Source: a bacterium
GTDB taxonomy: Bacteria; Zhuqueibacterota; Zhuqueibacteria; Residuimicrobiales; Krinioviventaceae
Assembly (NCBI GenBank): GCA_963674595.2
Contig: CAXXFV010000009.1
Location: 96,001 to 160,000, forward strand
Direction of reading: 5' to 3'
Length of the DNA: 64,000 nt
How positions within the stretch are numbered: position 1 is the first letter of the stretch; the number at the start of each line of letters is the position of its first letter. Below the pieces are notes generated by a model that saw only the letters and a program-made list of their open reading frames with translations, searched no databases and was not told the origin of the DNA. Positions 29,077 to 49,645 of the stretch are shown one piece after another. The translations under genes were made by a program, and so were the position numbers.

Positions 29077-29081
29077 TAAAA

Positions 29082-30124: not shown

Positions 30125-30198
30125 AAAAGGAGTTTGACATGATTCGACTACAGAATAATATGATTACAGCTTTGGTAGAATCTCGAAAGACAGAAACC

Positions 30199-30723: not shown

Positions 30724-30739
30724 AATAAAAGGTGTGATT

Positions 30740-31303: not shown

Positions 31304-31500
31304 TACAAGAATTATAATGTATTCCTGACTGATAAAATCAATTATTAGACCGGAAGGTCGTTCAAGTGATAGGTGACCAGGGCTGTGTCGCCCGGATTCG
31401 GATTGATGTAAGATGATGGAAATAGTTATCGAATTATAAAGAAGGAGGTGGTGATTATCGAGCACTGAACATTAATAATATTGGAATTCGAGCGTTTACT

Positions 31501-31781
31501 AAGCCCTGCAGGAATGTGGGGCTTTTATTTTATATTAAATTTAAAAATTCATGTGCATTTCAAGCAGAAAAATATTGTAAATTCTTTAAAAACCACTTGC
31601 AGTGGTTTGAGAAAATTTGTATAATTATTTTATCAGTAATAAAGGACTCTTTTTCAGGACAATATGGTCGGATATGGGTGTCTCTGATGCCCTTTAGCTA
31701 CTTTACCATCTATAAAAATGGGATTCATACGCACGTACGAGGAATAGATTGAGTCAATCACAAAATCACATTCCTGTTATT
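31501..31781 (+). repeat. Repeat copy 1: terminator + promoter + putative structured RNA
   Basis: AGCCCTGCA..TGTGGGGCT-T-run; TTGCAG-17-TATAAT (31597-31625); ~150 nt aligning with 46314-46465. Confidence 0.7.
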
Positions 31782-31790
31782 GTTATGACA

Positions 31791-32070
31791 CTATTATTTG
31801 CAGGAAGACTTGAAAAATAATTTCCATGATTTTATTGATTCTTGTAATAATCATCGTTATCATAAATCATTGGGCAATGTTACGCCGACTGATGTCTATT
31901 TTGGTAGGTAAGAAAAAAAATCAGAGCGAGATACTAATAAACAATAAAACAGGCAGGATTATATATTTTGAATATCCTTGAGTGCAGTAACAAATTAAAA
32001 AAGTATCCTTTAAAAAGTGTCATTTATTTAATTTAAAAATCTGTCTATTTTATTCTGCGGGATACTACTA
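31791..32070 (+). pseudogene. IS3/IS481-type transposase 3' remnant with degenerate right end
   Basis: Translates as YYLQEDL...FIDSCNNHRYHKSLGNVTPTDVYFGR*; IR-like TGTCTATTTTATTCTGCGGGATAC near 32042. Confidence 0.65.
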
Positions 32071-32090
32071 AATAAAAGAGATAAGCTACT

Positions 32091-35000
32091 ATGCCACACC
32101 CCCTATTTTCAACAAACCAGCAGGTAAGAAAAAAATCAAATCGTGATAATATTGGGGTAGTTATTAAGCATACAGGTATACGTCAGCAAATTCATTGGTA
32201 CAAAGTAAATTTTAATGGACGTATAATTGTATGTCCCGAACATGATTTAGAATTGTTTGTTGGTGACTTAGACGTTGAATCTGAATTTGTTAGTGGGAAT
32301 TTTGGAAGCAAAAAGGGATTTTCAAAATTATTGACATATAAGAAACTTATTTCATCTATCCGAAATAATATTTACGCACTATATGCATCAAAAACAGAAT
32401 TTCATGCCTATCAATATAAACCATTGTTGAAGTTTTTAGAATCTCCCGATCAACGTCTTTTAATTGCAGATGAAGTTGGATTAGGAAAGACTATAGAATC
32501 TGGATTAATACTTATTGAACAACGTGCCCGAAATCCAATTAGCAGGATTTTGATTGTATGTCCTTCTTCACTTACGAGAAAGTGGCGCGATGAAATGAGA
32601 ATTCGATTCGATGAAGAATTCGAAATCATGAATAAATTTCGGTTGGAAGAATTTCTCGAAGATTTCTATCGAGATGGAAATAGTATAAAACTGAGAGGAA
32701 TATGTAGTCTTCAATTATTGAGAAATAAGGAAATTCTTGCACAAATAGATGAGACAAATCCATCATTTGATTTAGTTGTAATAGATGAAGCTCATCACCT
32801 TAGAAACTATTCCACCTTATCAAATAGAATGGGCAGATTGCTTGCCACTTTGACAGATGGAATGATATTGCTTACTGCTACACCAATTCATCTTGGTAGT
32901 GAAGATTTGTTTAATCTTTTTAAAATTTTAAGACCGGGAGAATATGAGAATTTTTTCCTGTTTCAAAGGCGTTTAAATTTGAACAAATACATAATTGATG
33001 CAGAACGGGCAATTTTAAGCAGTCCCCCCAATATTCAATCTTGTCTTTCGAGTTTAAAAGAACTAAGAAATACCGAAGAAAATGAACGGTTTGAAAATGA
33101 TCCGGTTTATTGTAGAACTATCTCGCATTTAGAGGATGATCAACACTTATCGAGTAGACGTAAAATTATAGAACTACACCGTGACATTAATAGCTTGAGT
33201 ATGACAAGCAATATACTAACAAGAACTAGGAAACGGGAATTTCAAAAGCTCTCTAAAAGAACAGCACAAACTTTATCTCATAATTTCACTCCCGAAGAAA
33301 AGCGATTCTACGATGCTGTTACATCATACGTGCGATCTCAATATGAACACTATGGATATTTCGGTATTGGTGTATTCGTCGCAATGAACTATCAACGTCA
33401 AGTTGCAAGCTGTATTCCAGCTATGGTTAAACATTATCAAGAACAGCTTCAAATAAATGGAAATGATTCTGAAGTTACTGATTTAGAAATTGAAGATTGG
33501 ATCTCGAATAATAACTATGATGAGGATTATCAGGATAATCATAAAGAATTACTTGAGTTAATAGAATCATGTCAAATCACTGATGGGATCGATAGTAAAT
33601 ATGATAATTTTGTAGAACAAATAAAAAAGTTGGAACATGCCGAAACCGGAAGGAAGATATTAATATTTTCGTATTACAAGAAAACACTTAACTATCTTTC
33701 TGATAGGTTGTCAATGGATGGATTGAGAAATGTTGTTATTCATGGTGATGTGGAGCCGCAAGATAGATACGATTTAATTGACAAATTTAGAGAAGACTCG
33801 GATATAAAAATTCTGCTATCTTCTGAAGTTGGAAGTGAAGGCTTGGATTTCCAATTTTGTCATATTATGGTCAATTATGATTTACCATGGAATCCAATGA
33901 AAGTTGAACAGAGGATTGGAAGGTTAGATCGTTTTGGTCAAAAATCTGATAGAATTATTATCCTCAATATTGTTACGAGTGACACTATCGAAGAAAGAAT
34001 CTTGAATAGATTGTATAATAGAATTAATATTTTTACTGAATCAATAGGTGATTTAGAGCCAATATTAGGGGAGAAATTACATAACCTTCATTTAGAACTA
34101 TTAAAAAGCCACCTTGATGAAGGCGAAGAAAGCGAAAGAATTAAGCAGGTTGCTGACGCGATTGAAAGAGAAAGGCAACAAACGGAGAAGCTTGAGAAGG
34201 AAAGTACTAAATTAATAGGATTTGATGACTATTTCAACCAAGAACTTGGTAGATTGACCAAATATAAAAATTTTATTTCTGATGATGAATTAAAGGTGTT
34301 TTTAGAAGAGTATTTAATCGTAGAATATCCAAATGTAAAATTATATCCTCAAAAAAATCCAAAATTATTCAAAATACGGATTCCATTAGAACTTCTTAAC
34401 CAAATAAAAGAAAGTACGCTTCCTAACAATCAATTATTAAGAAAGTTCTTGAATGAATACTACAAACAAAATAGAAATGTTTTAATTACTTTTAATTCTG
34501 AGGAAGCTAACAAAAATAAGACTATTGAATTTATTAATTCAAACCATCCCTTAATCCAAATGATTGTTAAGCACTATGAATTCAAAAAGACAGAGCTGCA
34601 TCCTGTTTCAAAGATTAAGGTCAAATTTGATAAATTGCCATCTGGATATTATTTTTATTTTGTTTATTTAATTGAATTTTCTGGCGCAAGAGAGGAAAAA
34701 CGTCTGGAAAATATTGTAGTAAATTCAAAATCTTGTCAAGCTCTCACGGATGAATTGGCAGATGAATTAATTGGTGTTGCTAAGGTGCAAGGATCAGATA
34801 TTGATCTTCTCCCTAGTCATTTCGATATGAATCTAAGAAAGTCTTTCGATATCGCTTATGAAACAGCGCACAACATGCGTGAAGAAAGAGGAAATGAGTT
34901 AAGAACCATCAATGACAGCCTGATAGCTGAGCGGATCGGAAGCTTGCAAAAGTCTTTTAACTACAAAATAGGAAAAGCGAAATTGAGGTTGGAAACGGCA

Positions 35001-35156
35001 AGGGAGAAGAAATCAGATCATAGAATAATTCGAATGACTGAAAGCCAAATTAGAAATCTTGAGGACGAAAAAGAGCGTAAAATTAATGAAATGGAGATGA
35101 AGAGAACAGTTAGCAGTTCTCTAGAAGTAGTAGCCGCTGGTGTTATTGTGATATAA
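32091..35156 (+). CDS. SNF2/RapA-like helicase-ATPase (DrmD/ZorD-like family)
   Basis: LIADEVGLGKT, DEAHH, LTATP, SEGLDFQ, YDLPWNPMKVEQRIGRLDR; C-terminal coiled coil. Confidence 0.9.
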   Translation: MPHPLFSTNQQVRKKSNRDNIGVVIKHTGIRQQIHWYKVNFNGRIIVCPEHDLELFVGDLDVESEFVSGNFGSKKGFSKLLTYKKLISSIRNNIYALYASKTEFHAYQYKPLLKFLESPDQRLLIADEVGLGKTIESGLILIEQRARNPISRILIVCPSSLTRKWRDEMRIRFDEEFEIMNKFRLEEFLEDFYRDGNSIKLRGICSLQLLRNKEILAQIDETNPSFDLVVIDEAHHLRNYSTLSNRMGRLLATLTDGMILLTATPIHLGSEDLFNLFKILRPGEYENFFLFQRRLNLNKYIIDAERAILSSPPNIQSCLSSLKELRNTEENERFENDPVYCRTISHLEDDQHLSSRRKIIELHRDINSLSMTSNILTRTRKREFQKLSKRTAQTLSHNFTPEEKRFYDAVTSYVRSQYEHYGYFGIGVFVAMNYQRQVASCIPAMVKHYQEQLQINGNDSEVTDLEIEDWISNNNYDEDYQDNHKELLELIESCQITDGIDSKYDNFVEQIKKLEHAETGRKILIFSYYKKTLNYLSDRLSMDGLRNVVIHGDVEPQDRYDLIDKFREDSDIKILLSSEVGSEGLDFQFCHIMVNYDLPWNPMKVEQRIGRLDRFGQKSDRIIILNIVTSDTIEERILNRLYNRINIFTESIGDLEPILGEKLHNLHLELLKSHLDEGEESERIKQVADAIERERQQTEKLEKESTKLIGFDDYFNQELGRLTKYKNFISDDELKVFLEEYLIVEYPNVKLYPQKNPKLFKIRIPLELLNQIKESTLPNNQLLRKFLNEYYKQNRNVLITFNSEEANKNKTIEFINSNHPLIQMIVKHYEFKKTELHPVSKIKVKFDKLPSGYYFYFVYLIEFSGAREEKRLENIVVNSKSCQALTDELADELIGVAKVQGSDIDLLPSHFDMNLRKSFDIAYETAHNMREERGNELRTINDSLIAERIGSLQKSFNYKIGKAKLRLETAREKKSDHRIIRMTESQIRNLEDEKERKINEMEMKRTVSSSLEVVAAGVIVI

Positions 35157-35213
35157 AAACGATAATTAGTATCCTTGTACATTGAAGATTATTAAATTTT
35201 TTTATAGAAAACG

Positions 35214-36674
35214 ATGAAAAATATTGAAAAAGAAATACGAACTATCAATGTTGGCATAGATTTAGGCACTAGCAGTACTAAGGTCATTTATCAAATTGTG
35301 GAATTGGCCGGAGCAGGCCAGCAGAATGCGTTTATCTTTGATTTTGGAGATAATCCGGAAATTTATCCGCCATTAACATTACCATCCTATGTTATTGTGC
35401 ATGATGAGAAATATTATTTTGGTTTAGAAGCTTATTTAAAAATGGAAATATCTGAAGCAGAATTTACTTCTTTTAAGATGTGTGTTGCTTGTTTAATGGG
35501 GATCACCAAGTGCAAAAAATGTAATCAATATCAGACAAATTCATTTGATAGGGGAATATTTTCTTATAAAGAGATCGAAATTAATGCATATGACATAATG
35601 CTCTTTTATTTGGCATATGTTATGGGAATTGTATGTGAAAGCTTAAATAAAAAATATGGAGATCATTTCAGGCTTATTTACTCTTACAACGTTTCTTTTC
35701 CATTAAATTACCTGCAAAAAAAGGAAAATAATAAATTATTGGAAAAACTCGTGTTTTGGGCTGAAGATTTAAAAGATATTGTACATCAGGGAATCCCAGT
35801 AAAGATGGCAGCAGATGCATTGATAAAAACTTATAATAGAAAAAGCTATTTGCCAAAGATAGAAGAAAAATGCACCTTCGTCTTTTCAGAAACAATTGTC
35901 ACAATGCATTCATTTAGAGTCAGCGCCACTCATGATGATGGCTTGTATGCAATAATTGATATTGGTGCTGGGACAACTGACATTTCGTTTTTTCGGCTTG
36001 GAGAATCCAAAGGAGTTGATCCTCTCTTTTCAATTTATTTTGATCAAAGTCATAATATTGGCGGAGATAATTTTGACCAGACTCTTCTTGACTATCTTAT
36101 GATTAAATTTAAGAACGAAATTTTAAATTTTTCAAATTTTCTTGAAGTAATTAAATCTGCTAAACAAAAAATGTCAGACCAAAATTTATTTATCATTACT
36201 AACTTTTCATTAGAGTGGGGATTAAGAAAATTTCAAGACATTTGCAGTGAAAACTATGTCCAACTAAGGAATGCATTTAGAGAAACAAGGTGTTGTGCAT
36301 TTAAAAAAGAGCAAGATTGGAAACGTTGGGAAAATATCAATATTTTAATTATTGGAGGTGGATCGAAATTACCTTATATCAAGGACCCTATTTATAATAC
36401 TGATATACCACATTTTGACTGGAAGCCTACTTTTCCTGATCTGCAATTACCTGACAATTTAGATATAGTAGGATCGAATATATCTAAAAACAAATTAAAA
36501 GATATATTTTACTACTTCTATACTGCTCATGGTTTATCTTACCATTTTGATGAATATGAAAGGTCACATTATCCAGATACAGTTAGTAATTTTAGGCCAA
36601 AGAAAATTTATCGAAATTTTGTAGATATTGATGATCAATACTCAGGAATGCCTGATACAACAAGGCTTGAATAG
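35214..36674 (+). CDS. Divergent Hsp70/actin-fold ATPase with Cys-rich insert and no substrate-binding domain
   Basis: GIDLGTSSTK, IDIGAGTTD, IGGDNFD, IGGGSKLP; CVAC...CKKC. Confidence 0.8.
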   Translation: MKNIEKEIRTINVGIDLGTSSTKVIYQIVELAGAGQQNAFIFDFGDNPEIYPPLTLPSYVIVHDEKYYFGLEAYLKMEISEAEFTSFKMCVACLMGITKCKKCNQYQTNSFDRGIFSYKEIEINAYDIMLFYLAYVMGIVCESLNKKYGDHFRLIYSYNVSFPLNYLQKKENNKLLEKLVFWAEDLKDIVHQGIPVKMAADALIKTYNRKSYLPKIEEKCTFVFSETIVTMHSFRVSATHDDGLYAIIDIGAGTTDISFFRLGESKGVDPLFSIYFDQSHNIGGDNFDQTLLDYLMIKFKNEILNFSNFLEVIKSAKQKMSDQNLFIITNFSLEWGLRKFQDICSENYVQLRNAFRETRCCAFKKEQDWKRWENINILIIGGGSKLPYIKDPIYNTDIPHFDWKPTFPDLQLPDNLDIVGSNISKNKLKDIFYYFYTAHGLSYHFDEYERSHYPDTVSNFRPKKIYRNFVDIDDQYSGMPDTTRLE

Positions 36675-36706
36675 AATTCACATGCACTTGAATTCCTTTC
36701 GGGTGC

Positions 36707-36859
36707 GTAATTGAGCTGGGTATCTGCTCCAGAATATTTTAATCATCCCAAGGTTTTGAACTATAGGTATAGAAAAATAAACTTTTGGCCTTCACAGATA
36801 TAGATGGTCGTCGTTTACAATATAGTTCGTTCTCAAGCTCGATTATTACTATGTTAAAT
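36707..36859 (+). repeat. Degenerate attC-like site (right half intact)
   Basis: TAATTGAGCT pairs with AGCTCGATTA; ends in GTTAAAT (GTTRRRY) 36 bp before the DUF4268 start; no RYYYAAC left end. Confidence 0.35.
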
Positions 36860-36894
36860 TGTAAAAAATTAATCATTATACCAAAGGTGGTAAA

Positions 36895-37851
36895 ATGACT
36901 TCATTTGGTAAAATTAAAAAACTTAAATTAAGAGATATTTGGCAAAAGGAAGCACATGATTTCACACCATGGTTAGCCAAAAATATTACAGGATTAGGTG
37001 AATCGATTGGTATGGAATTAGAGTTAAATACTATTGAAGCAAATGTTGGTGATTTTTCTTTAGATTTATTAGCAAATGATTTAGGAACAGGTAGTAGTGT
37101 TGTAATTGAAAATCAATTAACTCCTACAGATCATGACCATCTTGGTAAATTACTTACTTATGCAGCGGGATTTGATGCTAAAACAGTTGTATGGGTTGCA
37201 GAATCTATTCGAGATGAACATCGTCAAACATTAGAATGGTTAAACCAACGTACAGGCTCTGACACACAATTTTTTGCTGTAATAATTGAGGTTATACAAA
37301 TTGATGACTCAAAACCAGCTTATAATTTTCGGCCAGTTGTTTTTCCTAATGAATGGCAAAAATCAAGTAGACGTAAAGCAGATAGCAATATATCTACAAA
37401 GGGTGATGCATACAAATCGTTTTTCCAAAACTTGATTGATGATTTAAGAGAAAAACATAAATTTACAGGTGCTCGAATTGGTCAACCACAAAATTGGTAT
37501 GCCTTTTCAGCAGGAATAAGTGGAATTCAATTTTGTGCTGTCTTTAGTCAAGGTGGCAAAGTAAGAGTTGAAGCATATATTGATTTAGGAGATTATGATA
37601 AAAATAAAAAAGTTTTCGATAATTTATATGCCCAAAGAGAAAATATCGAACAAGAAATCGGTTTAAACTTAACATGGGAAAAACTCGAAGAAAAAAGAGC
37701 ATCTAGGATATCAATCTATCAAGATGGTTCAATTGAATCAAATGAAGAAGAATTGATCCAAATACATAATTGGATGATTGATAAATTATTAAAATTTAAA
37801 AAGGTATTTAAACCAAAATTTAATGTGATAATTAAAAAAATTGCCACCTAA
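36895..37851 (+). CDS. DUF4268 protein with NucS-like PD-(D/E)xK N-terminal domain
   Basis: EAHDFTPWL, LDLLA, VIENQL, DHDHLGKLLTYAAG; C-terminal LTWEKLEEKRASRI. Confidence 0.85.
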   Translation: MTSFGKIKKLKLRDIWQKEAHDFTPWLAKNITGLGESIGMELELNTIEANVGDFSLDLLANDLGTGSSVVIENQLTPTDHDHLGKLLTYAAGFDAKTVVWVAESIRDEHRQTLEWLNQRTGSDTQFFAVIIEVIQIDDSKPAYNFRPVVFPNEWQKSSRRKADSNISTKGDAYKSFFQNLIDDLREKHKFTGARIGQPQNWYAFSAGISGIQFCAVFSQGGKVRVEAYIDLGDYDKNKKVFDNLYAQRENIEQEIGLNLTWEKLEEKRASRISIYQDGSIESNEEELIQIHNWMIDKLLKFKKVFKPKFNVIIKKIAT

Positions 37852-37870
37852 CACAGGTTTAATCACTGAC
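37846..37870 (+). repeat. attC left half overlapping the DUF4268 stop codon
   Basis: ACCTAAC (RYYYAAC) followed by ACAGGTTTAATCACTGAC; right half not found. Confidence 0.35.
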
Positions 37871-38012
37871 AAATAGTTGCACATTTTTAGGAATTAAGGA
37901 GATTTTTTTCTCGCCCTTGGGAAGATTCTCTGGATGTCATTAAATGGGGTATTTGCCCCTAAATATTTTGCACACCCGGCGGTTTCGTGTCACCCTTGGT
38001 GTTGTTGGCGGG

Positions 38013-38038
38013 TGTCACCCTGAGCGGAGTCGAAGGGT
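38013..38038 (+). repeat. REP-like palindrome
   Basis: TGTCACCCTGAGCGGAGTCGAAGGGT resembles the widespread GTCACCCTGAGC..GTCGAAGGG REP family. Confidence 0.5.
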
Positions 38039-38220
38039 GGGTAGGGCATAATTCCGATTTTTATTGACGCCCTGGAGTGGCATTTTAGGTGAGCTGGAGA
38101 GTTTTAGCAAATAACAAAGAGATGAAATGATAATGAATTCGCTAATTAAAATATTTTTATCTATTTTTCTTTTAGCATTATTAAATACTATATTATGGTA
38201 ATAAACTTGCGAGATACCCT

Positions 38221-39225
38221 ATGAATGAAAAATGTTTTGTAATAATGCCATTTACTACTCGAAAAGAGGATGAAATAAAATATAATGATAATAATCACTG
38301 GACAGAAGTATATGAAGGCTTGATTAAAAAGGTCTGTGAAGATATGTCAATTATATGCGAAAGAGATGACGTTGATAAATCACCAAGACATATTTTAAAT
38401 GGTATCCTAAATAAGATTGAAAAATATGATTTCGTGTTATGTGATCTATCCAGTTCAAATCCTAATGTACTATTCGAATTAGGGTGGGCAATGCGAGCAG
38501 ACAGACCTATTGTTTTAATAAATGATGATAGAACTGATTTTCTTTTTGATTTGAATCAATTTTATACATGTATATATGATAATAGGTTAAAGCCATCAAC
38601 ATTAGAAAAAAATAAAAAAGAATTGAGCGATACAATCCAAAGTCTCCTAAAAGGCAGTGAAGAACATCCATCTTTTGTAAAGCAATTAGCTTTGGAAGTT
38701 AATTCGCTTCAAAATGTATCAGATGTCAACCCTCAAGAATATCTATTAAAAAAGATTTATGAATCAGTTCAAGACTTTAAGCAAGGTTCAAAAAGCCAGG
38801 GGAAAAGCTCATTTGGGACTTGGACTTTTTACATTAATACTGCTATTGGCCATTTTAGTAGATTAAACACAATTTTAAATAATTGTAACAATTTAATAGA
38901 TGCTGAAAGACAAATATTAGACTTCGTAAATTTAAATAATTTATTCAGAAACCAAGCATATCAATTTTCTCTGATTGATATGAATCGAAGATTCATCTAC
39001 CATGACTGGAAGAATACTATTAATCCGATTGCAACCAAGATTTCTTTGGATTCGTTTAATATTTATGATATAATAATTGAAAATAAAACAGGTATTGTTG
39101 CCTGGCAAGATAACGGTAACAACGCTTTACAGAACTCTGTAGAAAGAAGAGAAAATATTGCTGTATATGCCTATATTAAAAATATTGAGGCTATACTTAT
39201 TTTCGAAATTCATAATAATCTATAA
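38221..39225 (+). CDS. Nucleoside-deoxyribosyltransferase/TIR-like domain fused to a Cache-like domain
   Basis: N-terminus CFVIMPF, VLCDLSSSNPNVLFELG, FLFDL; C-terminus YQFSLIDMNRRFIYH...GIVAW...AVYAYI..ILIFEIH. Confidence 0.65.
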   Translation: MNEKCFVIMPFTTRKEDEIKYNDNNHWTEVYEGLIKKVCEDMSIICERDDVDKSPRHILNGILNKIEKYDFVLCDLSSSNPNVLFELGWAMRADRPIVLINDDRTDFLFDLNQFYTCIYDNRLKPSTLEKNKKELSDTIQSLLKGSEEHPSFVKQLALEVNSLQNVSDVNPQEYLLKKIYESVQDFKQGSKSQGKSSFGTWTFYINTAIGHFSRLNTILNNCNNLIDAERQILDFVNLNNLFRNQAYQFSLIDMNRRFIYHDWKNTINPIATKISLDSFNIYDIIIENKTGIVAWQDNGNNALQNSVERRENIAVYAYIKNIEAILIFEIHNNL

Positions 39226-39230
39226 GTATT

Positions 39231-39362
39231 TCATAACAAAAAGCTCAACCTGACATCCAGGGCAAGCGCTTTTGGGATTGTTATCAGATGCTTTAATGGG
39301 TTGGATTATTTCTGCAAGGTCATACCGGTTCGGCCTAAGTGCAAGTTAACTAAATGTTATAA
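39231..39362 (+). repeat. Integron attC site
   Basis: TCATAAC...AGCTCAACCTG / CAAGTTAACT...GTTATAA; 132 bp; starts 6 bp after the stop. Confidence 0.7.
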
Positions 39363-39415
39363 TAAAAAAATAATAAACTGTACAAAAGCGCAAGTTAATG
39401 TAGAGAATTATTGGA

Positions 39416-42400
39416 ATGACAGAGACTCAAAGACAAATAGATATAGCACGAAAAAGTTTACTTGATTTGACAAATCGAAATAGACTAATCAATTTTAAAT
39501 TAACCAAAAATACATCGCTGAAAGTAGTTGATGAATTACCAACGGAAATTTACAATCTTTTGGTAATTCAAGAAAAAAGCATGGCATTTAAAGCGACAAT
39601 TGAAAACTTAGATGATACGAAGAGCTTGGATTTATTTACTAATGTAGGTAATAAAAAAAATGATAATAGCTTTGCCAGAATTGATGATAGTGAATTACCT
39701 AAGAATTATACTGATTTGTTTCTTCAAACTGACCAGGTAAAGGAAAAGCTTTCTATTAAATTAAGAAAAATCTCGCAGGATGCGAGAGCAATATTAGAGG
39801 AACAAGGTTATAACATTTTATATTTAGCGCTTGGTTTCTTAGAGTATGAAGATGTTGAGCATGAAAGAACAAGACGTAAAGCTCCGCTCATATTAGTCCC
39901 GATTGAACTTTATAGAACTAAAGTAAAAAGTGATTTTAAGATAAAATGGACAGGTGAAGAAATATTGCACAACTTTGCTTTAAAGGAAAAATTAATAGAG
40001 CAAGGCATTATTTTACCAGATTTTGAGATGCCGGACGAAAAGTCTGAATTAGATAGATATTTTAATCGTGTTGAAAAGGAAATAAACACTCATGAAAATT
40101 GGCAGGTAAACAAAGACATTTACTTATCATTCTTTAGTTTTGCCAAATTTGTAATGTATAAAGATCTTGATGCCGATAGTTGGTCTGATATACATTTGTC
40201 TGAAAACAAACTGCTTGAAGGATTGTTTGAAAAAAATGAAGAGATTTTAACTGCAAATGATTTTAATGAAGATGATATTGATAAAAAGCTTGAAACAAAA
40301 AAGTTATTTCATATTTTAGACGCTGATCCATCACAGATATGTGTAATTGAAAATGCGAAAGCTGGTAAGAACTTAGTCGTAGAGGGGCCACCAGGAACAG
40401 GTAAATCACAAACCATAGCCAATATTATTGCTGAGTTACTTGCTAATGAAAAAACAGTATTGTTCGTTTGTGAAAAAATGGCAGCTCTTGAAGTGGTGAA
40501 AAAAAGATTGGACCAAACAGGTATTGGACAATTTTGTCTAGAACTACATAGTAAAAAAACAAACAAAAATGAGTTTTTGAAAGAGCTCGAAAAGTGTGCA
40601 TTTACAACTAGTGAAACAATACCAACATTTGACACTAAATTCAGCAATTTTGAAATATTAAAGAATGAGCTCAACGATTATGCGAAAACTTTAAGGACGA
40701 GGGTGGGAAATTTAGAATTTAATGTATATGAATTACTGATGCTAAAAGAGAAAAGTTTGTTGCATTTCGAAAGGGTGAAGAGAAATGAACTCGATTTATC
40801 GATTGGAGATTGGATTAATATAACTTCTGAGGATTATACCGAGGCAATAAAATCGCTTAATGACCTATCACAAACAATACAGCTTGTACAACCTATAAAT
40901 AAAAATCCATGGAAATGGTGTGCCCCAAATCAGATTATACTACCAAGTGATGTGAAAATTATCAAGGAGAAACTTAATTATGCCATTAGAAACCTAACTT
41001 TGTATGCAAATAGCTTAAAATTTTTATCAACCTTGAGTGGTATCAGAATTCCAAGAACCATGAGTAATCTTAAAGAAGCTGTTAATGCAGCTGTAATGAT
41101 TTCAAAAGCAGGAAAAGTTGATGAAAACGTACTTCTAAACGAAGAATGGAACACCCCTTCAAACATTGCAAGTAAGATTGTTGAAACGATTCGTAAAATA
41201 AAGAACCTTAAGCCTATATACTCACAAAAGTTTAGAAACAATGCATCCGGTTGCGATATTGTATTCTTATTGAAGGAATATAAAGAAACCTATAACAAAA
41301 TATTTAAAATTTTCTACCCACGCTACTATAAAACGAAGAAAATGCTAAAAAGTATTTATCTTAATTCAATCCAAAGAAACAAATATCTGATACTTGAAGA
41401 TCTTTTAATGTTGAAAGAATACATTAATGCTAAGAACTACATAAAAAATATCGAAACCAAGGGGCTTGCTCTCTTTGGAACACATTGGAATGGAGAAAAT
41501 AGTAATCCTGAAATGCTAGAGTATTTGTCGGGATGGCTTGTTTCATTCAGAAAGGAATTGGTCGCACAAACTTTAAGTAATAATTCACTTAAATTAGTCT
41601 CAAACGGGATTTCGAAGGAGAATATAGTAAAAACTTTGAAAAAACTAAAAACAGAGTATATTAATTTTGCACAATCTATTAAAACGTTAGATAGAATTTT
41701 AAAGCCAAATTATGATAAATATTTTGAAATGAAGTTTGAGAATGCAGATATTAATAAAATTTATAATTTACTAAAAATGTGGGAAAAGCATACTGACAGA
41801 ATTCAAAAATGGACACAATTTTTACCATATATTGAACGATGTAGAAAAACAATAGCATGGCCTATTGCTGATTATTTATTTATGAATAATTTATATTCAG
41901 AAGATATCGTCCCTAGTTTTCAAAGTTGCTTTGCTGACTTTTTTATCCGACATGCATTTGAAACGATGCCAACACTAAATAATTTTGTTGCAAATTTTCA
42001 TCAGAAGAGAATAAATTCCTTTATTGAAATTGACCAAGAATTAATTAAGTTAAATAGAGTGAGGTTATATAACAAATTAAGTGCTGCGAAACCCAAAATA
42101 TTCTATGGCATATCACCTGATTCTGAAGTGGGCCTTTTAGTGGGCGAGTTTAATAAAAAAAGGCGGCATATGCCAATAAGAAGACTCCTATCTGCAATAC
42201 CTAAATTAGTACAGAAAATAAAGCCGTGTTTTATGATGAGTCCAATCTCAATAGCACAATATTTAAAGCCAGGAAATGTTAAATTTGATGTGATTATATT
42301 CGATGAAGCGAGCCAAATCAAGCCACAAGATTCTTTAGGTGCATTTTTACGTGCAAAACAAGCTATTGTTATTGGGGACACAAGGCAATTACCACCAACA

Positions 42401-44176
42401 AGTTTCTTTGATTTTATAGTGGACTCTGAAGATGATGGAAATTTTATATCTTCTATTTCAGATCTGGATAGTATACTACACTTATGCAAACAAAGATACC
42501 CAACACTGATGCTCAAGTGGCACTATAGAAGTAAACATGAGTCATTAATTGCTGTGTCCAATAACCAGTTTTATGAAAACAAACTTTTAGTCTACCCTTC
42601 AGCGACCTCACAATCAGAAAAATTAGGGCTCCATTTAAAATATTATAGTGACACAGTTTATGATAGAGGTAAGAGTCAGAAAAATTTAAAAGAGGCACAG
42701 ATTGTTGCAAAAGCTGCATTTGATCATTTTAAAAGGTCCCCGGACAAGAGTTTAGGAATAGGGACTTTTAGTATAAAACAGCAAGAAGCAATATTGGACT
42801 ACATCGAATTAATGTTACAGAAGAATCCCGAAATGGAAAACCATTTTTCTTCGCAGAAAGAAGAAAATTTTTTTGTAAAGAATTTGGAGACAATACAGGG
42901 TGACGAGCGAGATGTTATATTTATTAGTATTGGGTACGGAAAAGATGTAAACGGTCGAATTACCAATAATTTTGGCCCACTAAACCATGATGGGGGGGAA
43001 CGAAGATTAAATGTATTAATTACTAGAGCAAGAGAGAAAACCGTAGTTTTCTCAAATTTTAGAGCAATAGACATGCAGTATAGTAATGGCTTTTCGAAGG
43101 GAGTTAAGTCATTAAAACTATTTATGCAATATGCTGAAAGTAAAGAGATGCCTTATGAGGAGCAGTTTTTAGAAGACGCGGATTCACCGTTTGAGGAGGC
43201 AGTTTGTGATTTTCTAGTTGACAATGGATTTGAAGTTAGGAAACAAGTTGGATGTACCGGTTTTCGTGTTGATTTAGCAATAGTTGACGCAAAAGCCCCT
43301 GGAAAGTACTTACTAGGGATTGAATGCGACGGGGCAAAATATCACAGTTCTCCTGTTGCTAGGGATAGGGATAGACTACGACAACAGATACTTGAACAAA
43401 TGGGCTGGGTCATATATAGAATTTGGTCAACAGATTGGTATCGGAATAGAAACGAAGCACAAAAAGAGCTATTAGCATTCATACAAAGTTTAAATGATAG
43501 AGAAGACGTGGGAAATGACAAGGATGTTAATATTGAAAAAAATGGAAAGGAAGAAGAGGAAAAAAGTAAAATAAATAATTGTATTACCACTTATAAGCCA
43601 ACAAATTTTATCAAAAAAACTAAAAAATACAAGATGGCTACACAAAAGGATACTATTGGATTTAAAAGTTTTGATTTATGTGAGGAGTTTGATATAGCAA
43701 AAATAATAACTCAAATAGTAAAAATTGAAAGTCCAATCCATAATGATTATTTGATAAATAGATTGCGAATAATTTATGAACTAAAGAGGATTGGAGAAAG
43801 AATAATGGATAAGTTAGAATCAGCAATCTCTTTCGCTGTTAGATCGAAGATGATCAAACGTGATGGTGACTTTTATTTAGAAAAATATAATAAAAAGATA
43901 ACACCCCGATATCGGCAGGAAAAAAAAGAATTAGATTTATCGAAAATATATACAAAAGAAATAGAACAGGCGATTAAGTTTGTTTTGAAACACCAGCTTT
44001 CAACCTCACTTGAGGATTTGCTATATCAGGCTGCTAAAGTGATAGGTTTTAAGACTGTAAATCTGCAAACAAAAGAGAAAATTAAAAGAATCACTCTTGA
44101 AATGCTAACAAATTATGAATTAGAGTTTGATAGTAATGATTTTATTAAAATAGCCAAAAATGATAGCGACGAATAG
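39416..44176 (+). CDS. DUF4011-SF1 helicase-Vsr-like nuclease-DUF3320 protein (Hhe-type anti-phage architecture)
   Basis: LLDLTNRNRLINF, GPPGTGKSQT, FDEASQ, ETIQGDERD, RRLNVLITRA, GIECDG..YH...RDRDRLRQ..GW...RIWSTDW. Confidence 0.9.
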   Translation: MTETQRQIDIARKSLLDLTNRNRLINFKLTKNTSLKVVDELPTEIYNLLVIQEKSMAFKATIENLDDTKSLDLFTNVGNKKNDNSFARIDDSELPKNYTDLFLQTDQVKEKLSIKLRKISQDARAILEEQGYNILYLALGFLEYEDVEHERTRRKAPLILVPIELYRTKVKSDFKIKWTGEEILHNFALKEKLIEQGIILPDFEMPDEKSELDRYFNRVEKEINTHENWQVNKDIYLSFFSFAKFVMYKDLDADSWSDIHLSENKLLEGLFEKNEEILTANDFNEDDIDKKLETKKLFHILDADPSQICVIENAKAGKNLVVEGPPGTGKSQTIANIIAELLANEKTVLFVCEKMAALEVVKKRLDQTGIGQFCLELHSKKTNKNEFLKELEKCAFTTSETIPTFDTKFSNFEILKNELNDYAKTLRTRVGNLEFNVYELLMLKEKSLLHFERVKRNELDLSIGDWINITSEDYTEAIKSLNDLSQTIQLVQPINKNPWKWCAPNQIILPSDVKIIKEKLNYAIRNLTLYANSLKFLSTLSGIRIPRTMSNLKEAVNAAVMISKAGKVDENVLLNEEWNTPSNIASKIVETIRKIKNLKPIYSQKFRNNASGCDIVFLLKEYKETYNKIFKIFYPRYYKTKKMLKSIYLNSIQRNKYLILEDLLMLKEYINAKNYIKNIETKGLALFGTHWNGENSNPEMLEYLSGWLVSFRKELVAQTLSNNSLKLVSNGISKENIVKTLKKLKTEYINFAQSIKTLDRILKPNYDKYFEMKFENADINKIYNLLKMWEKHTDRIQKWTQFLPYIERCRKTIAWPIADYLFMNNLYSEDIVPSFQSCFADFFIRHAFETMPTLNNFVANFHQKRINSFIEIDQELIKLNRVRLYNKLSAAKPKIFYGISPDSEVGLLVGEFNKKRRHMPIRRLLSAIPKLVQKIKPCFMMSPISIAQYLKPGNVKFDVIIFDEASQIKPQDSLGAFLRAKQAIVIGDTRQLPPTSFFDFIVDSEDDGNFISSISDLDSILHLCKQRYPTLMLKWHYRSKHESLIAVSNNQFYENKLLVYPSATSQSEKLGLHLKYYSDTVYDRGKSQKNLKEAQIVAKAAFDHFKRSPDKSLGIGTFSIKQQEAILDYIELMLQKNPEMENHFSSQKEENFFVKNLETIQGDERDVIFISIGYGKDVNGRITNNFGPLNHDGGERRLNVLITRAREKTVVFSNFRAIDMQYSNGFSKGVKSLKLFMQYAESKEMPYEEQFLEDADSPFEEAVCDFLVDNGFEVRKQVGCTGFRVDLAIVDAKAPGKYLLGIECDGAKYHSSPVARDRDRLRQQILEQMGWVIYRIWSTDWYRNRNEAQKELLAFIQSLNDREDVGNDKDVNIEKNGKEEEEKSKINNCITTYKPTNFIKKTKKYKMATQKDTIGFKSFDLCEEFDIAKIITQIVKIESPIHNDYLINRLRIIYELKRIGERIMDKLESAISFAVRSKMIKRDGDFYLEKYNKKITPRYRQEKKELDLSKIYTKEIEQAIKFVLKHQLSTSLEDLLYQAAKVIGFKTVNLQTKEKIKRITLEMLTNYELEFDSNDFIKIAKNDSDE

Positions 44177-44417: not shown

Positions 44418-45968
44418 ATGTCATTTATCAATCGGGACTGGCTGCAGGATTTATATGCTCCGCCTGGCTTTTTTAATGACATTGCCAAAGGTATAAAACC
44501 TCAAACCGAAATGCCGCAGTTTATCGTGTTCATCAAGCCGGTTCAGGTCGGAATAACCGAGCGCCTTTTAGTTGAACTCTTGCATTATGTTTCCAGTGGA
44601 TTACGTGGTTTGTATGTCATGCCGAACCAAACCCTGAGATCGAACTTTGTACATGACCGAATTGATAAACTTCTCAGTTATGTTCCCTTGTACAAAAGTC
44701 ATTTGGATGAAGGAGGTGAAAGTGACAGTGTTTTACAGAAACATTATGGTAAAGGGACCATGCGATTTGTAGGATCGAATTCAAGGACAGAGTTTGTTGA
44801 AAATCCGGTTGATATCGCTTTTGTTGATGAATATGATGAATCAGACATGGACAACCTGGACCAGTTAAAAGACAGGTTAAAAGCATCTGAATATAAAATG
44901 CTTAGATATTCGTCACGACCCACTGTTGAAAATTGTGGTGTGGATGGTTTATACCGGTCTACGAATCAATCCCGATACCTGACCCGGTGTCAGCATTGCA
45001 ACAAATACATTGAACTTGACTGGTTTAAACATGTTGTTCGGCAGGTTGATTCTGAGGGTTTGATTTATAAAGTCATTAAAGAAGAAAATGGCAAACCTCA
45101 AATTATATGTGATAAATGTGAAAAGATTATATATGAACCATGGGTCGGTGAATGGATTGCCAAATACCCGGATAAACCGAGAGTCGGTTACCGGTTTTCA
45201 AGGTTGATCAGTTTTGATACTGATCTTTTGGAATTGTGGAATGAATTTCAGGAAGCTCTTGGAGATACGACCAAGACACAATTGTTTCACAATTCAAATC
45301 TGGGCCGTGCTTTTGCTCCAAAGGGAAGTAAAATAACTGAAGCTTTGATGGAAAAGTGTAAAGATGATTATCTCATGCCGTCTACGGGAAATAATACTTT
45401 TATGGGAGTTGATCCAGGTGGACGGCATCATTATTTCATCTGGGAACGATATAATGGAAGAAAACGACTTGTTGCTTGTGGTGCGGCGTATGATTGGGAT
45501 ACACTGGATTTTCTGATTGATCAGTATAATGTTGAAGTATGTACAATTGATGGTGAATATGATACTACGAAAGCAAAAGAGTTACAGTTAATGAGACCTG
45601 GTAAGGTATGGTTGTGTTGGTATAAAAAAGGGGGGAGCTTACAGGATCAGACAGTTGACATTGATAATAAAATTATTGCTCTTGACCGGACACAAGCTCT
45701 TGATCGTGTTTTAAAGAATATTTTAAAAAGTGAACAGGATGGATTTATCCTTCCGAGAAACTGGAGAAAGGTATCTGATGGTGAGTTGTTGGACCATTTT
45801 ACATTACCAGTCAGGTATTTTGACCCAAATACAAATCGTCAGGTTTGGAGTAAGCCCATTAGTGGAGACCATTTATTACATGCCGCAGCTTATTCTTTAA
45901 TCAGTGAAGAAATTGGTGGAACCATAGGGGGATCAATGGTGTGGAGCAGAGCTGGAAAGGCTAGATAA
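44418..45968 (+). CDS. Phage terminase large subunit, GpA-type (N-terminus probably eroded)
   Basis: KPVQVGITE Walker A, FVDEYDE Walker B, SRPT, CQHC/CDKC zinc site, GVDPG nuclease, DHLLHA. Confidence 0.85.
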   Translation: MSFINRDWLQDLYAPPGFFNDIAKGIKPQTEMPQFIVFIKPVQVGITERLLVELLHYVSSGLRGLYVMPNQTLRSNFVHDRIDKLLSYVPLYKSHLDEGGESDSVLQKHYGKGTMRFVGSNSRTEFVENPVDIAFVDEYDESDMDNLDQLKDRLKASEYKMLRYSSRPTVENCGVDGLYRSTNQSRYLTRCQHCNKYIELDWFKHVVRQVDSEGLIYKVIKEENGKPQIICDKCEKIIYEPWVGEWIAKYPDKPRVGYRFSRLISFDTDLLELWNEFQEALGDTTKTQLFHNSNLGRAFAPKGSKITEALMEKCKDDYLMPSTGNNTFMGVDPGGRHHYFIWERYNGRKRLVACGAAYDWDTLDFLIDQYNVEVCTIDGEYDTTKAKELQLMRPGKVWLCWYKKGGSLQDQTVDIDNKIIALDRTQALDRVLKNILKSEQDGFILPRNWRKVSDGELLDHFTLPVRYFDPNTNRQVWSKPISGDHLLHAAAYSLISEEIGGTIGGSMVWSRAGKAR

Positions 45969-45989
45969 ATTTTAATAGAAAGGAATGAT

Positions 45990-46184
45990 ATGCCAGTACA
46001 AATAAATCCTAAATTAGAATCGACAAAGAAGCGTTTGACAATATTAAGAAATCATATATATGATATGAGTAAATATTTTGAAAAGAGTGGTTCAAAAAGT
46101 CCGGCAAGTGATGCGATCCGGGAGGTATCTAAAAAGACCGGATTTTCTGTGAGTTATTTACGTGATGTTTATTACAAGTATTGA
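45990..46184 (+). CDS. Small HTH protein
   Basis: AIREVSKKTGFSVSYLRDVYY; AAGGA RBS. Confidence 0.6.
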   Translation: MPVQINPKLESTKKRLTILRNHIYDMSKYFEKSGSKSPASDAIREVSKKTGFSVSYLRDVYYKY

Positions 46185-46214
46185 GGAAAAAGTTGAGAAT
46201 TTAATCGGTTGTCG

Positions 46215-46465
46215 AGCCCTGCAGAAGTGTGGGGCTTTTTTTGTTATATATGGGGTAGATAAATTTTTTAAAAACAACTTGCGCCAATGTTACAAAATTT
46301 GTAATATAATTATATCAGCTGTAAAGGTCTGTTTTCAGAACAATCCGGTCGAGCATGGGAGTCTCTGAAAACCTTTAGCTGATTTACCACCTTTTTAACA
46401 AACAGGATTTAAAAGCACACACGAGGAAGAGGTTGCATCGGTCACAAAATCAGATCCCTGTTATT
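46215..46465 (+). repeat. Repeat copy 2: terminator + promoter + putative structured RNA
   Basis: AGCCCTGCA..TGTGGGGCT-T-run; TTGCGC-17-TAATAT(AAT); stems ATCAGCTGTAAAGGT/ACCTTTAGCTGAT and AACAGGAT/ATCCCTGTT. Confidence 0.7.
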
Positions 46466-46819
46466 TCGCGGTTACAATTATTGGGTTGGGTGGAGTCGGT
46501 CTATGTAAACCGGAAAACTCATTACAAGGAAATCAATTGGTTATTCGTTTTTTTAATTGATTTTATACAAGCTGTATAACATATATTTGAAAATATGATT
46601 TTAATAAAAATAACATGTTGTATTTATGGTTGTTACGGCATATTATTTATATTATATGACATGGTTTTTCAGTCTATAGTTAGTTATCAAAATCGTTCAA
46701 TACTATGTTCAGTGTATAGAAATATAAAGTCTATTAAATAAATGTTTTAGTTAAGCTAAAAAAAATTAGCCCTTTTTATGAATGGAAACCAGTTTTTTCG
46801 CTGGAGAGAGAAATGAAAT

Positions 46820-48241
46820 ATGAATACTGAAGAAAAAACCATTTTACTTGTTGAGGATCAAGCAGTCATTTGTCAGGATCAAGCTGCTATCTTGAGTAGC
46901 GAAGGTTACAATGTCATTACTGCTCTAAATGGAAAAGCAGCTCTGGATAAATTTAAAAATGGGCATAAAATTGATCTCATTTTAATGGATCTTGATCTTG
47001 GTAAAGGAATGGATGGAACTCAAGTTGCAGAAATCATTTTACGTGATCATAATATTCCTATTATTTTTCTATCGGGTCACACTGAAACGGAAATGATTAA
47101 AAAAACAGAAAAGATTACGTCCTATGGTTTTGTGGTAAAAGGTTGCGGAGAGAATGTACTTTCCACGGCCATTAAAATGGCTTTCAGGTTACATTGTTCA
47201 TACATGGAAAATTTTAGACAAGCAGAAGCATTAAAAGATTCTGAACTTCGTTACAGACGTCTTTTTGAATCCGCCCAGGACGGTATATTAATTTTAGATT
47301 CAGATCAGGGCGTAATAATAGATATTAATCCATATTTAATGGAATTGATCGGTTATAGTTTCAATGAAGTTTTGGGAAAGTCTCTTTGGGAAATCAGCCC
47401 TTTTCTGGACATTGCGGCGAATAAGGACAAATTTCTTGAGCTTCAAAAAACTGGGTATGCTCATTATGATCATCTCCCGCTTATAAATAAAAATGGAATG
47501 GTTAAGAATGTTGAATTTGTAAGTAATGTATATCTAGTAAACGATAATAAAATTATTCAATGTAATATCCGTGATATAGAAAAACGAAAAAAATATGAAA
47601 ATGGAAGAGAAGCAATATTGACAGGAAAAACAACAATGCTTCGGGAGCTCCAGCACAGAATCAAGAACAGTATGTCCATTATTGTCAGTCTTATTAGCCT
47701 TGAATCAAATCGATCACATGATTCCGAGACAAAAGAAGCTTTTCTCAGAATCCGTGATAGAATAAACTCAATGGCAAACCTTTATAATATGCTCGATAGC
47801 TTCAAGAATATGAATGAAGTTCAATTTGATAAATATCTTAAAAAAACACTTGATGAACTGTTTAAAGTTTATGTGAATTCTCATGGACAAATAACTCTGG
47901 ATACAGATCTGGAAAAAATAATGCTTGATGTAGATCTAGCACTACCCATTGGACTTGTTCTAAATGAATTGGTTACGAATTCTCTCAAATATGCATTCCC
48001 TGATTCTCACAGTGGGAACATTAAAATTACCCTCAAACGTATAAATGACGATGTAACCATTGATGTTTCAGATGACGGGATTGGATTTCCTGTAGAATCT
48101 ACTATCAATAATTCTGTAGGTCTGGGTATGTCGCTTGTACAAATGTTAATAGATCAAATTGACGGCAGTATTAAACATGTTCCTGTTGAATCTGGAACCA
48201 TGTTCAGTATTAAATTCCCTTTACAAAATAAGATTGAATAA
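46820..48241 (+). CDS. REC-PAS-HisKA_2 histidine kinase
   Basis: ILLVED, LMDLDL, PAS, ELQHRIKN, NELVTNSLKYAF, DDGIG. Confidence 0.9.
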   Translation: MNTEEKTILLVEDQAVICQDQAAILSSEGYNVITALNGKAALDKFKNGHKIDLILMDLDLGKGMDGTQVAEIILRDHNIPIIFLSGHTETEMIKKTEKITSYGFVVKGCGENVLSTAIKMAFRLHCSYMENFRQAEALKDSELRYRRLFESAQDGILILDSDQGVIIDINPYLMELIGYSFNEVLGKSLWEISPFLDIAANKDKFLELQKTGYAHYDHLPLINKNGMVKNVEFVSNVYLVNDNKIIQCNIRDIEKRKKYENGREAILTGKTTMLRELQHRIKNSMSIIVSLISLESNRSHDSETKEAFLRIRDRINSMANLYNMLDSFKNMNEVQFDKYLKKTLDELFKVYVNSHGQITLDTDLEKIMLDVDLALPIGLVLNELVTNSLKYAFPDSHSGNIKITLKRINDDVTIDVSDDGIGFPVESTINNSVGLGMSLVQMLIDQIDGSIKHVPVESGTMFSIKFPLQNKIE

Positions 48242-48278
48242 CATGAAAATTTATGTATTGTATTATCAGAAGAAAAGC

Positions 48279-48402
48279 GCATAACCCAATTTTACATGCG
48301 GATCGAACCACGCCCCCTTTTTTCTAATCTGGGAAGTAGCTGGAATCACTTGTTTTTTTATAATAACATTTGGTGGTTCGACCGGTGAAAATCACGTTAA
48401 AT
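48279..48402 (+). repeat. Integron attC site
   Basis: GCATAAC...ATTTTACATGCGGATCGAACCAC / GTGGTTCGACCGGTGAAAAT...GTTAAAT; 124 bp. Confidence 0.75.
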
Positions 48403-48476
48403 ATCTTATCAATTGCTTCAAGGATTCATCGAAAAATCTGAAAGACTGAAATAGTAAAATAGGAAAACACATCTAA

Positions 48477-49502: not shown

Positions 49503-49510
49503 ATACCAAT

Positions 49511-49645
49511 ATTTAACAAAGTATTCCAGCGGAACACAGGGCGTTTTTTCAATTTGAGTTTGGTTCATTAATTTCTTAAAAGTTCAGATAAAATCTGAAA
49601 TATCGTGCATGTAAGCCCTGTGTCCCCTGAATACTCTAGTTAGCC
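49511..49645 (+). repeat. Integron attC site
   Basis: ATTTAAC...AGTATTCCAGCGGAACACAGGGC / GCCCTGTGTCCCCTGAATACT...GTTAGCC, with unpaired C and A on the top strand as expected for extrahelical bases; 135 bp. Confidence 0.85.

Follow-up and report, generated by a model that had tools for sequence, protein, structure and literature searches.

Two stretches of a 64,000-nucleotide (nt) region of a bacterial genome (hereafter the window), at positions 31501–31781 (copy 1) and 46215–46465 (copy 2), belong to a family of about 90 portable modules that is specific to one lineage. The analysis shows that the family is large, that its unit is discrete, that the genes found behind its members are diverse, that the module is linked to an integron integrase and that attC sites are present. 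We give about an even chance that both copies are portable promoter-plus-leader expression modules. As read here, the module would consist of a predicted sigma-70-type promoter and a leader of ~190 nt, which would be transcribed and act in cis. The leader would carry a long hairpin at its very 5′ end and, towards its 3′ end, a Shine-Dalgarno-like AGGAA and a TTG, partly sequestered by a hairpin with TTCCT. Firing of the promoter, transcription of the leader and a role of the hairpins in stabilising the transcript or gating translation are all inferred. Copy 1 would drive a defence island and copy 2 an integron cassette array without an integrase.

A family of about 90 modules in one genome

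The source genome is a metagenome-assembled genome of 6.6 Mb in 37 contigs (97.6% complete, 5.1% contamination). Copies 1 and 2 align with a mean column identity of 79% over a terminator, a promoter-like region and ~190 nt downstream, and the conserved blocks which an earlier reading of the DNA by eye (the sequence-only reading) had listed were found in both. That reading had taken them for a duplication of two diverged copies; the two stretches do align at their given positions, but they are far from being the only ones in the genome. A DNA search of the genome gave 40 scored matches out of 105 candidates, and a profile of the two copies gave 97 matches with nhmmer. The iterated profile gave 138 matches at E ≤ 0.01, with 93 at 45 bits or more and 70 near full length. 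A covariance model restricted to the RNA part (R1; 164 positions, 27 pairs) was trained on 50 copies, taken from the best 60 after 10 with a disrupted 3′ half had been excluded. It found 90 matches at E ≤ 0.01, copy 2 (C9:142313-142476) scoring 153.7 bits. The copies are clustered by contig, with 28 on C29, 12 each on C26 and C3 and 10 on C13, and are typically co-oriented and spaced 1–12 kb apart.

The unit is ~240 bp long and consists of an A/T tract, a −35 element TTGCnn, a 17-nt spacer, a −10 element TATnAT and a block-conserved leader of ~190 nt. The promoter consensus of the family reads A/T tract, CTTGC, a 17-nt spacer ending in AATTTG, and TATnAT. Conservation is block-wise and not uniform: overall identity is 65–79%, while the promoter hexamers and the leader blocks TCAG, TTTTCAG, GG, GGG, CTGATTT, CGAGGAA.A.ATTG and ATTCCTGTT are at least 90% invariant. 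In many copies a G-rich tail follows the leader, and conservation ends beyond it. Homology extends from about −220 to between +0 and +52 nt relative to the CCTGTT end. Among 42 copies compared, 8 pairs had a high-scoring segment pair of at least 84% identity covering the core, and three copies on C29 share 90–93.5% identity over 232–244 nt with unrelated flanks on both sides. The ends of the consensus are the A/T tract and the G-rich tract, which are not reverse complements of each other, and no terminal inverted repeats or target-site duplications were seen on inspection, without a formal search, at the consensus ends or at the three near-identical copies. Promoter motifs of the Bacteroidota type were considered and rejected on reading of the family consensus.

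Nearly every copy is followed on the same strand by an open reading frame (ORF) of at least 80 amino acids (aa), usually within a few hundred nt, and the copies always point toward this downstream gene. The first same-strand ORFs of 74 copies fell into 64 blastp clusters, the largest of which had 8 members. In a set of 80 first downstream ORFs, 136 Pfam families were matched; the type IX secretion C-terminal sorting domain was the commonest (10 of 80), followed by FlgD_ig (5), PAS/HisKA_2 kinases (3), helicases (2) and Gp49/HigB-type toxins (2). Two module-headed two-gene units on C29 are read as toxin-antitoxin pairs. After the antitoxin-like gene of these duplicated units, just before the next module, lies a GC-rich imperfect hairpin of ~70 nt (C29:49505-49600 and 50840-50935) without AAC/GTT cores. 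On the preferred reading, the unit would have been copied ahead of unrelated accessory genes, namely those for secreted proteins, toxin-antitoxin pairs, kinases and defence, and integron cassettes, as well as into two slots of phage-like elements, and its propagation before all of these would give them one shared promoter type and one control at the level of the leader.

The closest described phenomenon is the propagation of promoters within a genome, of which the present case is a far larger example than those described in a commentary (PMC3575422). Putative mobile promoters (Matus-Garcia, Nijveen and van Passel, 2012; commentary PMC3575422) are, as summarized there, mostly pairs with a mean identity of 92% over 50–100 nt. 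Like the module they are closely similar non-coding sequences before non-paralogous genes of one genome, with no recognised mobile element, no Rfam match and no known mechanism of mobilisation as far as the commentary describes them. In contrast to those, the present family has ~90 members, a defined unit of ~240 bp with a long block-conserved leader, members which are mostly 69–80% identical, and ties to an integron integrase and to phage-like cargo slots. The three near-identical C29 copies fall within the mobile-promoter definition (at least 80% identity over at least 50 nt, before non-paralogous genes; 64 clusters among 74 ORFs), but most family members are less than 80% identical and would therefore be missed by it. 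Correia, ERIC and REPIN sequences, in the account of the same commentary (PMC3575422), are also short many-copy repeats able to bring a promoter to neighbouring genes. The module differs from these in that its ends are not reverse complements, in that inspection revealed neither terminal inverted repeats nor target duplications, and in its constant orientation toward the downstream gene.

A rival reading is promoter hitch-hiking, in which a strong promoter was spread through variable islands by segmental duplication, recombination and gene conversion, the 190-nt leader being a functionless passenger conserved through recent copying and concerted evolution. We regard this as possible though doubtful. 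It would agree with the restriction of the family to 1 of 43 genomes of the order, with the greatest similarity being among neighbours (the three C29 copies at 90–93.5%), with the re-use of promoters documented in the commentary (PMC3575422) and with the weak covariation and the folding no better than that of shuffled sequences which are described below. A second, unrelated promoter-leader family of ~10 copies also behaves alike. However, most copies are only 69–80% identical and yet retain the same short blocks at 90% or more, where neutral decay would spread changes evenly; in addition, the blocks keep a nearly constant spacing, and at the proposed pairs G-U is twice as frequent as A-C.

The family is known from this one metagenome-assembled genome, which is also the only representative of its genus. 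R1 had no match in the 18 other genomes of the family or in the 42 other genomes of the order (21 other genera), and blastn found the module in none of 40 relatives. Two pattern scans of metagenome collections returned no member, although these collections, like those of viral and genome contigs scanned here, may lack records very close to the source genome. A pattern scan of genome contigs gave 107 singleton stretches from unrelated taxa; among the 80 checked with the profile, similarity was confined to the pattern itself (best 16 bits), and these were discarded as chance matches.

Structure and possible role of the leader

The sequence-only reading did not recognise a known RNA family in the module, and the Rfam check which was run agrees with this, no family being found at its gathering threshold. 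The scan of the whole window with Rfam 15 at gathering thresholds returned only tRNA-Pro, and the best hits of permissive scans of both copies were JA04 (27.9 bits, threshold 81) and fstAT (19.5 bits, threshold 72).

Two stems had also been proposed by the sequence-only reading. The first (ATCAG../..CTGAT with TAAAGG/CCTTTA) is present in the minimum-energy fold of both copies and is 78–90% paired across 60 copies. The second (AAYGGGA/TCCTGTT) appears in the fold of copy 2 only, and there is a competing hairpin of AGGAA with TTCCT which is mutually exclusive with it, both using the same TTCCTGTT. Per-sequence pair probabilities projected on the alignment gave three features: a long hairpin that starts at the predicted 5′ end and has one stem nested in another, a 3′ hairpin of AGGAA with TTCCT, and an inner stem of GAtt with AATC. 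A pseudoknot between TTTACCA and TGGT was dropped, as two compensatory cases were seen by eye against several mismatched ones.

On this supplied structure, the 60 copies contain 35 cells with changes on both sides of a pair, compared with 20.8 in shuffles (1 of 500 shuffles reached 35). When the partner columns were slid by 1–3 positions, pairing fell to 34–53%, a control which is biased in favour of the structure because the structure was derived from the same sequences. Over the three helices, 142 G-U pairs were counted against 71 A-C mismatches, and this excess favours a plus-strand RNA over a DNA hairpin. The data are thus compatible with a structured leader RNA, which they weakly support.

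Several results weigh against an expression module with a working RNA leader. RNAalifold predicted no consensus pair on the 60 copies. The excess of paired cells over shuffles is a mere 1.7 points (86.4% against 84.7%), and neither the number of pairs with double changes nor that of pairs with further pair types exceeds that in shuffles (149 of 500 and 56 of 500 shuffles, respectively). A lack of significant covariation had been named by the sequence-only reading as a result that would count against it, and the data come close to this, RNAalifold finding none and the counts on the supplied structure being barely above those of shuffles. Ranked by mutual information with average-product correction, the top column pairs mostly mark subfamilies rather than base pairs. 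Single-copy folds are no more stable than those of shuffles (z −0.25 and −0.24), and the two window copies take different 3′ folds. In most copies the start codons of the cargo genes lie ~20–670 nt past the conserved part, through unconserved sequence, so the leader cannot directly gate their ribosome-binding sites; the exception is the integron integrase gene (intI) described below, whose ribosome-binding site lies inside the hairpin. No conserved terminator was found after the leader, and neither a terminator nor a sequestered ribosome-binding site, as in a riboswitch-like expression platform, accompanies the conserved domain, intI excepted. As the family is confined to a single metagenome-assembled genome, selection is inseparable from shared ancestry and gene conversion.

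The promoter is subject to a similar reservation. Where the sequence-only reading had described a sigma70 promoter, a consensus scan called none in either window copy, because the −35 element (TTGCAG in copy 1, TTGCGC in copy 2) agrees with TTGACA at 3 of 6 positions. What upholds the promoter reading is the conservation of CTTGC, the 17-nt spacer and TATnAT throughout the family. In the window, the −10 element is TATAAT in copy 1 and, in register with it, TAATAT in copy 2; TG stands immediately before the element, and the spacer has 17 nt.

Conserved leader elements just after the promoters of acquired or phage operons, such as those of JUMPstart/ops and the put RNAs of phage HK022, occur in several copies per genome and modify transcription in cis. 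The module recalls these leaders in its position, but it has no sequence similarity to them and is present in far more copies. Two NusG-family genes (one of them a paralogue) are found in the genome, neither of them near modules, and the idea of a link through the NusG paralogue was abandoned as nothing follows from it.

If the module works as read, a single plug-in promoter-leader would standardise how one uncultured bacterium expresses much of its accessory genome, from secreted proteins and toxin-antitoxin pairs to defence systems and integron cassettes, and the same unit would drive an integron integrase too. It would represent a natural portable "expression cassette head" and would join promoter re-use, integrons and phage-like cargo slots, which are usually studied apart. 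The family would then provide ~90 natural variants from which the important leader blocks could be worked out. Should the leader be no more than passenger DNA, the family would still be an unusually large case of promoter propagation.

Integron and phage-like settings of the module

In a sister element on contig C3 (C3:105000-124000, hereafter L284), the module after a 64-aa ORF runs directly into a gene. The TTG after ACGAGGAAGAGA opens an ORF of 330 aa which the integron-integrase model TIGR02249 matches from residue 16 onwards with 454 bits (cut-off 265); no other plausible start lies upstream. The AGGAA...TTG of the module therefore supplies a bona fide integron integrase with its ribosome-binding site and start codon, which would make the module the promoter and 5′ untranslated region of that integron. 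The hairpin to TTCCT (codons 8–9 of intI) would sequester the ribosome-binding site of intI. Downstream of intI follow a block of ~170 nt, co-oriented genes split by canonical attC-type hairpins (e.g., ..GCTAAC...GTTAGGT.. at L284:9135-9273, DNA fold z −2.96), a 243-aa gene and an array of clustered regularly interspaced short palindromic repeats (CRISPR).

The CRISPR array (L284 ~4800-6900, minus strand) has ~30 copies of a 37-nt repeat and lies downstream of the cassettes and the 243-aa gene; the repeat has no match in the window with up to 3 mismatches allowed. A near-identical non-coding stretch of ~230 nt (window 52640-52900; L284 7600-7850, minus strand) precedes homologous genes of 235 and 243 aa. 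It carries a T-run hairpin as well as a direct repeat (window 52538-52562 and 52797-52821), and the 235-aa protein has no Pfam or PADLOC match.

Integrase remnants stand beside two further modules, comprising residues 20–89 on C6 and the last codons together with the block on C29, and a further integrase C-terminal fragment is found on C29. The block or part of it has 11 matches in the genome, 8 of which adjoin a module. Integron integrases above the cut-off are present in 7 of the 19 genomes of the family, and R1 detected no module upstream of the intI loci of five relatives.

A site of the attC type lies at the 3′ end of each co-oriented cassette and forms an imperfect hairpin with bulges, delimited by the cores ..AAC and GTT... 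At copy 2 in the window, the module with its G-rich tail is followed by no integrase but, after ~60 nt, by the same block as in the sister element, then by two genes, one for a kinase with a weak attC-like site behind it and one for a lipase with a clear attC site (49508-49648; DNA fold z −2.88, with none of 200 shuffles as stable). The weak site (48272-48403) is suggestive at most because its DNA fold has z −0.75. No IntI was found in the window, its sole integrase (23120-24286) being of the phage type. By these alignments and site predictions, copy 2 is the sister integron platform without the integrase, heading attC-bearing cassettes, and the order of promoter-leader, block and cassettes would place the module to serve as a cassette promoter. 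The analogy to an integron Pc (cassette promoter) platform which the sequence-only reading had drawn is therefore nearly literal for copy 2, except that the integrase is absent from the window. In the atypical Treponema-type integron, intI is transcribed toward attI and the cassettes (PMC3607928), and the order of promoter-leader, intI, short block and co-oriented attC cassettes in the sister element resembles it. In contrast to that type as described there (PMC3607928), the window has no integrase, the promoter-leader is repeated ~90 times and attI is here a candidate only.

These associations also bear on two other readings of the module. One is a DNA recombination platform, in which the module, or its 3′ boundary near CCTG|TT, is used for capture by an integron integrase or other recombinase, so that the genome would hold ~90 attI-like entry points and the "stems" would be features of folded DNA. 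It draws on the fusion of the module to intI at one intact and two remnant loci, on homology at orthologous slots stopping 0–52 nt after CCTGTT, on canonical attC cassettes after two modules and on the integrases of the 7 family genomes. However, the breakpoints form a zone and not a single position, and GTT lies at the outer end of the inverted repeat and not at the inner end, where it lies in attC. The real attC sites here differ in sequence, the C29 module-headed toxin-antitoxin units end in hairpins without AAC/GTT cores, and relatives have intI without the module upstream. The promoter elements are, moreover, as strongly conserved as anything else. We consider this reading unlikely. Quite unlikely, too, is a wider version of the same idea, a dispersed integron-like system in which promoter, leader and integrase-gene start would double as a capture-and-expression platform seeded ~90 times in chromosome islands and phage-like elements. 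New genes would enter at the 3′ boundary of this platform, with immediate expression, and the elements would use the platforms as exchangeable slots for defence genes and cassette arrays.

The other reading is that AGGAA...TTG starts a small peptide in every copy, the translation of which couples to or attenuates downstream expression. The same signals do start a real protein (intI) in one copy, and cargo genes of this genome use Shine-Dalgarno sequences. The anchor is recognisable in 42 of 65 copies, with frames of 1–75 codons beginning L-R-R-x-Q-N-H-I-P-V. In the other 23 copies the anchor pattern was not found, frame lengths are erratic, with four copies stopping within 5 codons, and the changes in ATTCCTGTT are by eye mostly non-synonymous (Pro to Leu/Ser, and Val to Phe/Ile/Ala, outnumber synonymous ones). 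Upstream variation fits U-A to U-G pairing and not conservative residues. A leader ORF is thus very unlikely, and we retain the promoter-plus-leader module as the preferred reading.

Both window copies lie within a phage-like element. Its order is tRNA-Pro, a tyrosine integrase, a repressor with S24 and helix-turn-helix domains, an Mgm101/Rad52-type annealing protein, a single-stranded DNA-binding protein, small ORFs, copy 1 with its cargo, a terminase-like gene, a 64-aa ORF and copy 2, the backbone being 23120-31303 and 44418-46184 beside tRNA-Pro. At least five further backbones of this kind are present in the genome (three on C3, and on C10 and C5), with a fragment on C25; an integrase, a repressor, an Mgm101/Rad52-type protein, a single-stranded DNA-binding protein and a terminase-like gene are common to the elements of this family. 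The slot after a 196-aa ORF holds a module in three elements (the window, one ~90% identical, and one with a 69% family member in its place), and that after the terminase-like gene and the 64-aa ORF holds one in four. The earlier placement of each copy where a phage-like operon ends and cargo begins is thus borne out, and at two recurrent slots. The terminator which it saw in both copies was also called in each by a terminator scan (31501-31524 and 46214-46237, each with 10 pairs and a T run; 0.3–0.4 such sites expected in shuffles). At copy 1 this hairpin region (31501-31534) forms the upstream portion of a longer repeat which the copies inside phage-like elements have in common (nhmmer matches starting at profile positions 2–6).

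The sequence-only reading had gone on to propose a phage-encoded non-coding RNA or riboregulated leader specific to prophage cargo junctions, acting in trans or by put-type anti-termination. The return of the module at two fixed slots, seen in a group of five or more related phage-like elements, would suit it, as would the one sister element which has a different leader family at both slots, as if leaders were matched to the element. The distribution in the genome largely refutes this reading: about 85 of the ~93 copies lie outside the elements, ahead of ordinary accessory genes. Viral contigs scanned with two patterns gave no stretch with the strict pattern and 20 with the looser one, none of the 20 passing the covariance model at E ≤ 1, and the terminase-like protein had no relative in viral contigs. 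Together with the lack of a conserved terminator after the leader, this makes a phage-specific RNA highly improbable.

In contigs of three runs, from two studies, the summed depth of the backbone pieces is 3–4 times that of the cargo. A single contig, from one of the runs, joins 31353 to 46258 with just 26 letters on its shorter side, and was set aside as too weak to represent an empty-site form. No capsid, portal or tail genes were seen after the terminase-like gene in the two elements examined, so the elements look like satellites or decayed prophages with two exchangeable cargo slots. A direct repeat of the 3′ end of tRNA-Pro (13-mers) was absent from the window, which leaves it without an attR and the right end of the element undefined. 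The cargo of sister elements includes secreted proteins and an IS256-type transposase. The latter (IS256/Mutator type by Pfam, 408 aa) lies among type IX secretion substrates in the C3 locus L280 (9346-10572, plus strand), and a second copy is suggested at 4747-5973 (minus strand) by its equal length. The second promoter-leader family (TTGACT, 17-nt spacer, TAGAAT and a leader of its own; ~10 genome copies), which occupies both slots in one sister element, is located on the minus strand of contig C3 at L281 4560-5230 and L280 15200-15570.

Features of the window

The coordinates of the features which surround and make up the two copies are collected in Table 1. The gene content makes copy 1 the head of a putative defence island. 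Its cargo encodes a DrmD-like SNF2 helicase (E 1e-170), an Hsp70-like protein (PDC-M61B) and a DUF4268 protein (PDC-S11, E 1e-116), together with a weak match to a TIR effector and a DUF4011 helicase-nuclease (PDC-S37/Hhe). In the leader of copy 1, ATTCCTGTT (31770-31778) is able to pair with either AGGAA or GGGA.

Table 1. Coordinates in the window of the two module copies, their cargo and adjoining element parts
Feature	Position	Strand	Basis
Terminator-like hairpin and T run at the end of the phage-like early operon	31501..31534	+	Terminator scan; common to copy 2; nhmmer
Copy 1, predicted promoter: UP-element-like A/T tract, −35 TTGCAG (31597-31602), TG and −10 TATAAT (31620-31625), predicted start ~31632	31578..31625	+	Sequence; family consensus
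Copy 1, leader 5′ domain: predicted long hairpin (outer and inner stems) 0–2 nt from the predicted start, then conserved single-stranded TTTACCA	31632..31708	+	Minimum-energy fold; pair counts in 60 copies; near-invariant columns
Copy 1, leader 3′ domain: GGGA box, ACGAGGAATAGATTG (Shine-Dalgarno-like AGGAA and TTG 31749-31751), ATTCCTGTT (31770-31778)	31717..31780	+	Folds; pair counts; intI start in sister copy
Probable transposase (rve-type) C-terminal remnant, in place of the usual G-rich tail of copy 1	31789..31911	+	Weak Pfam rve_3 and rve_2 (E 0.002–0.003, below curated cut-off); alignment
Copy 1 cargo: five defence-type genes	32091..44176	+	Pfam; PADLOC; single-copy depth unlike flanking backbone
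Element backbone: gpA-type terminase large-subunit-like gene and 64-aa ORF, 4–5 genome copies	44418..46184	+	Pfam; tblastn; blastn
Terminator-like hairpin and T run ahead of copy 2	46214..46247	+	Terminator scan
Copy 2, predicted promoter: A/T tract, −35 TTGCGC (46279-46284), 17-nt spacer, −10 TAATAT (46302-46307), predicted start ~46314	46262..46307	+	Sequence; register with copy 1; family consensus
Copy 2, leader: predicted 5′ hairpin domain (46314-46383), TTTACCA, GGGA-type box, ACGAGGAAGAGGTTG (TTG 46433-46435), ATCCCTGTT (46454-46462), G-rich tail ~46481-46496	46314..46496	+	Sequence; alignment; fold
Block of ~170–200 nt homologous to the sequence just downstream of sister intI; candidate attI region	46556..46760	+	nhmmer; alignment
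First cassette-like unit: response-regulator/PAS/HisKA_2 kinase and weaker attC-like site (48272-48403)	46820..48403	+	Pfam; sequence
Second cassette: class-3 lipase and clear attC-type site (49508-49648; ..TTTAAC...GTTAGCC, bulged imperfect hairpin)	48477..49648	+	Pfam; sequence

To the right of the cassettes, among two-component regulators, the window also encodes a baeRF family 3 release-factor-like protein (60143-60703) and an RRM-domain protein (55768-56046).

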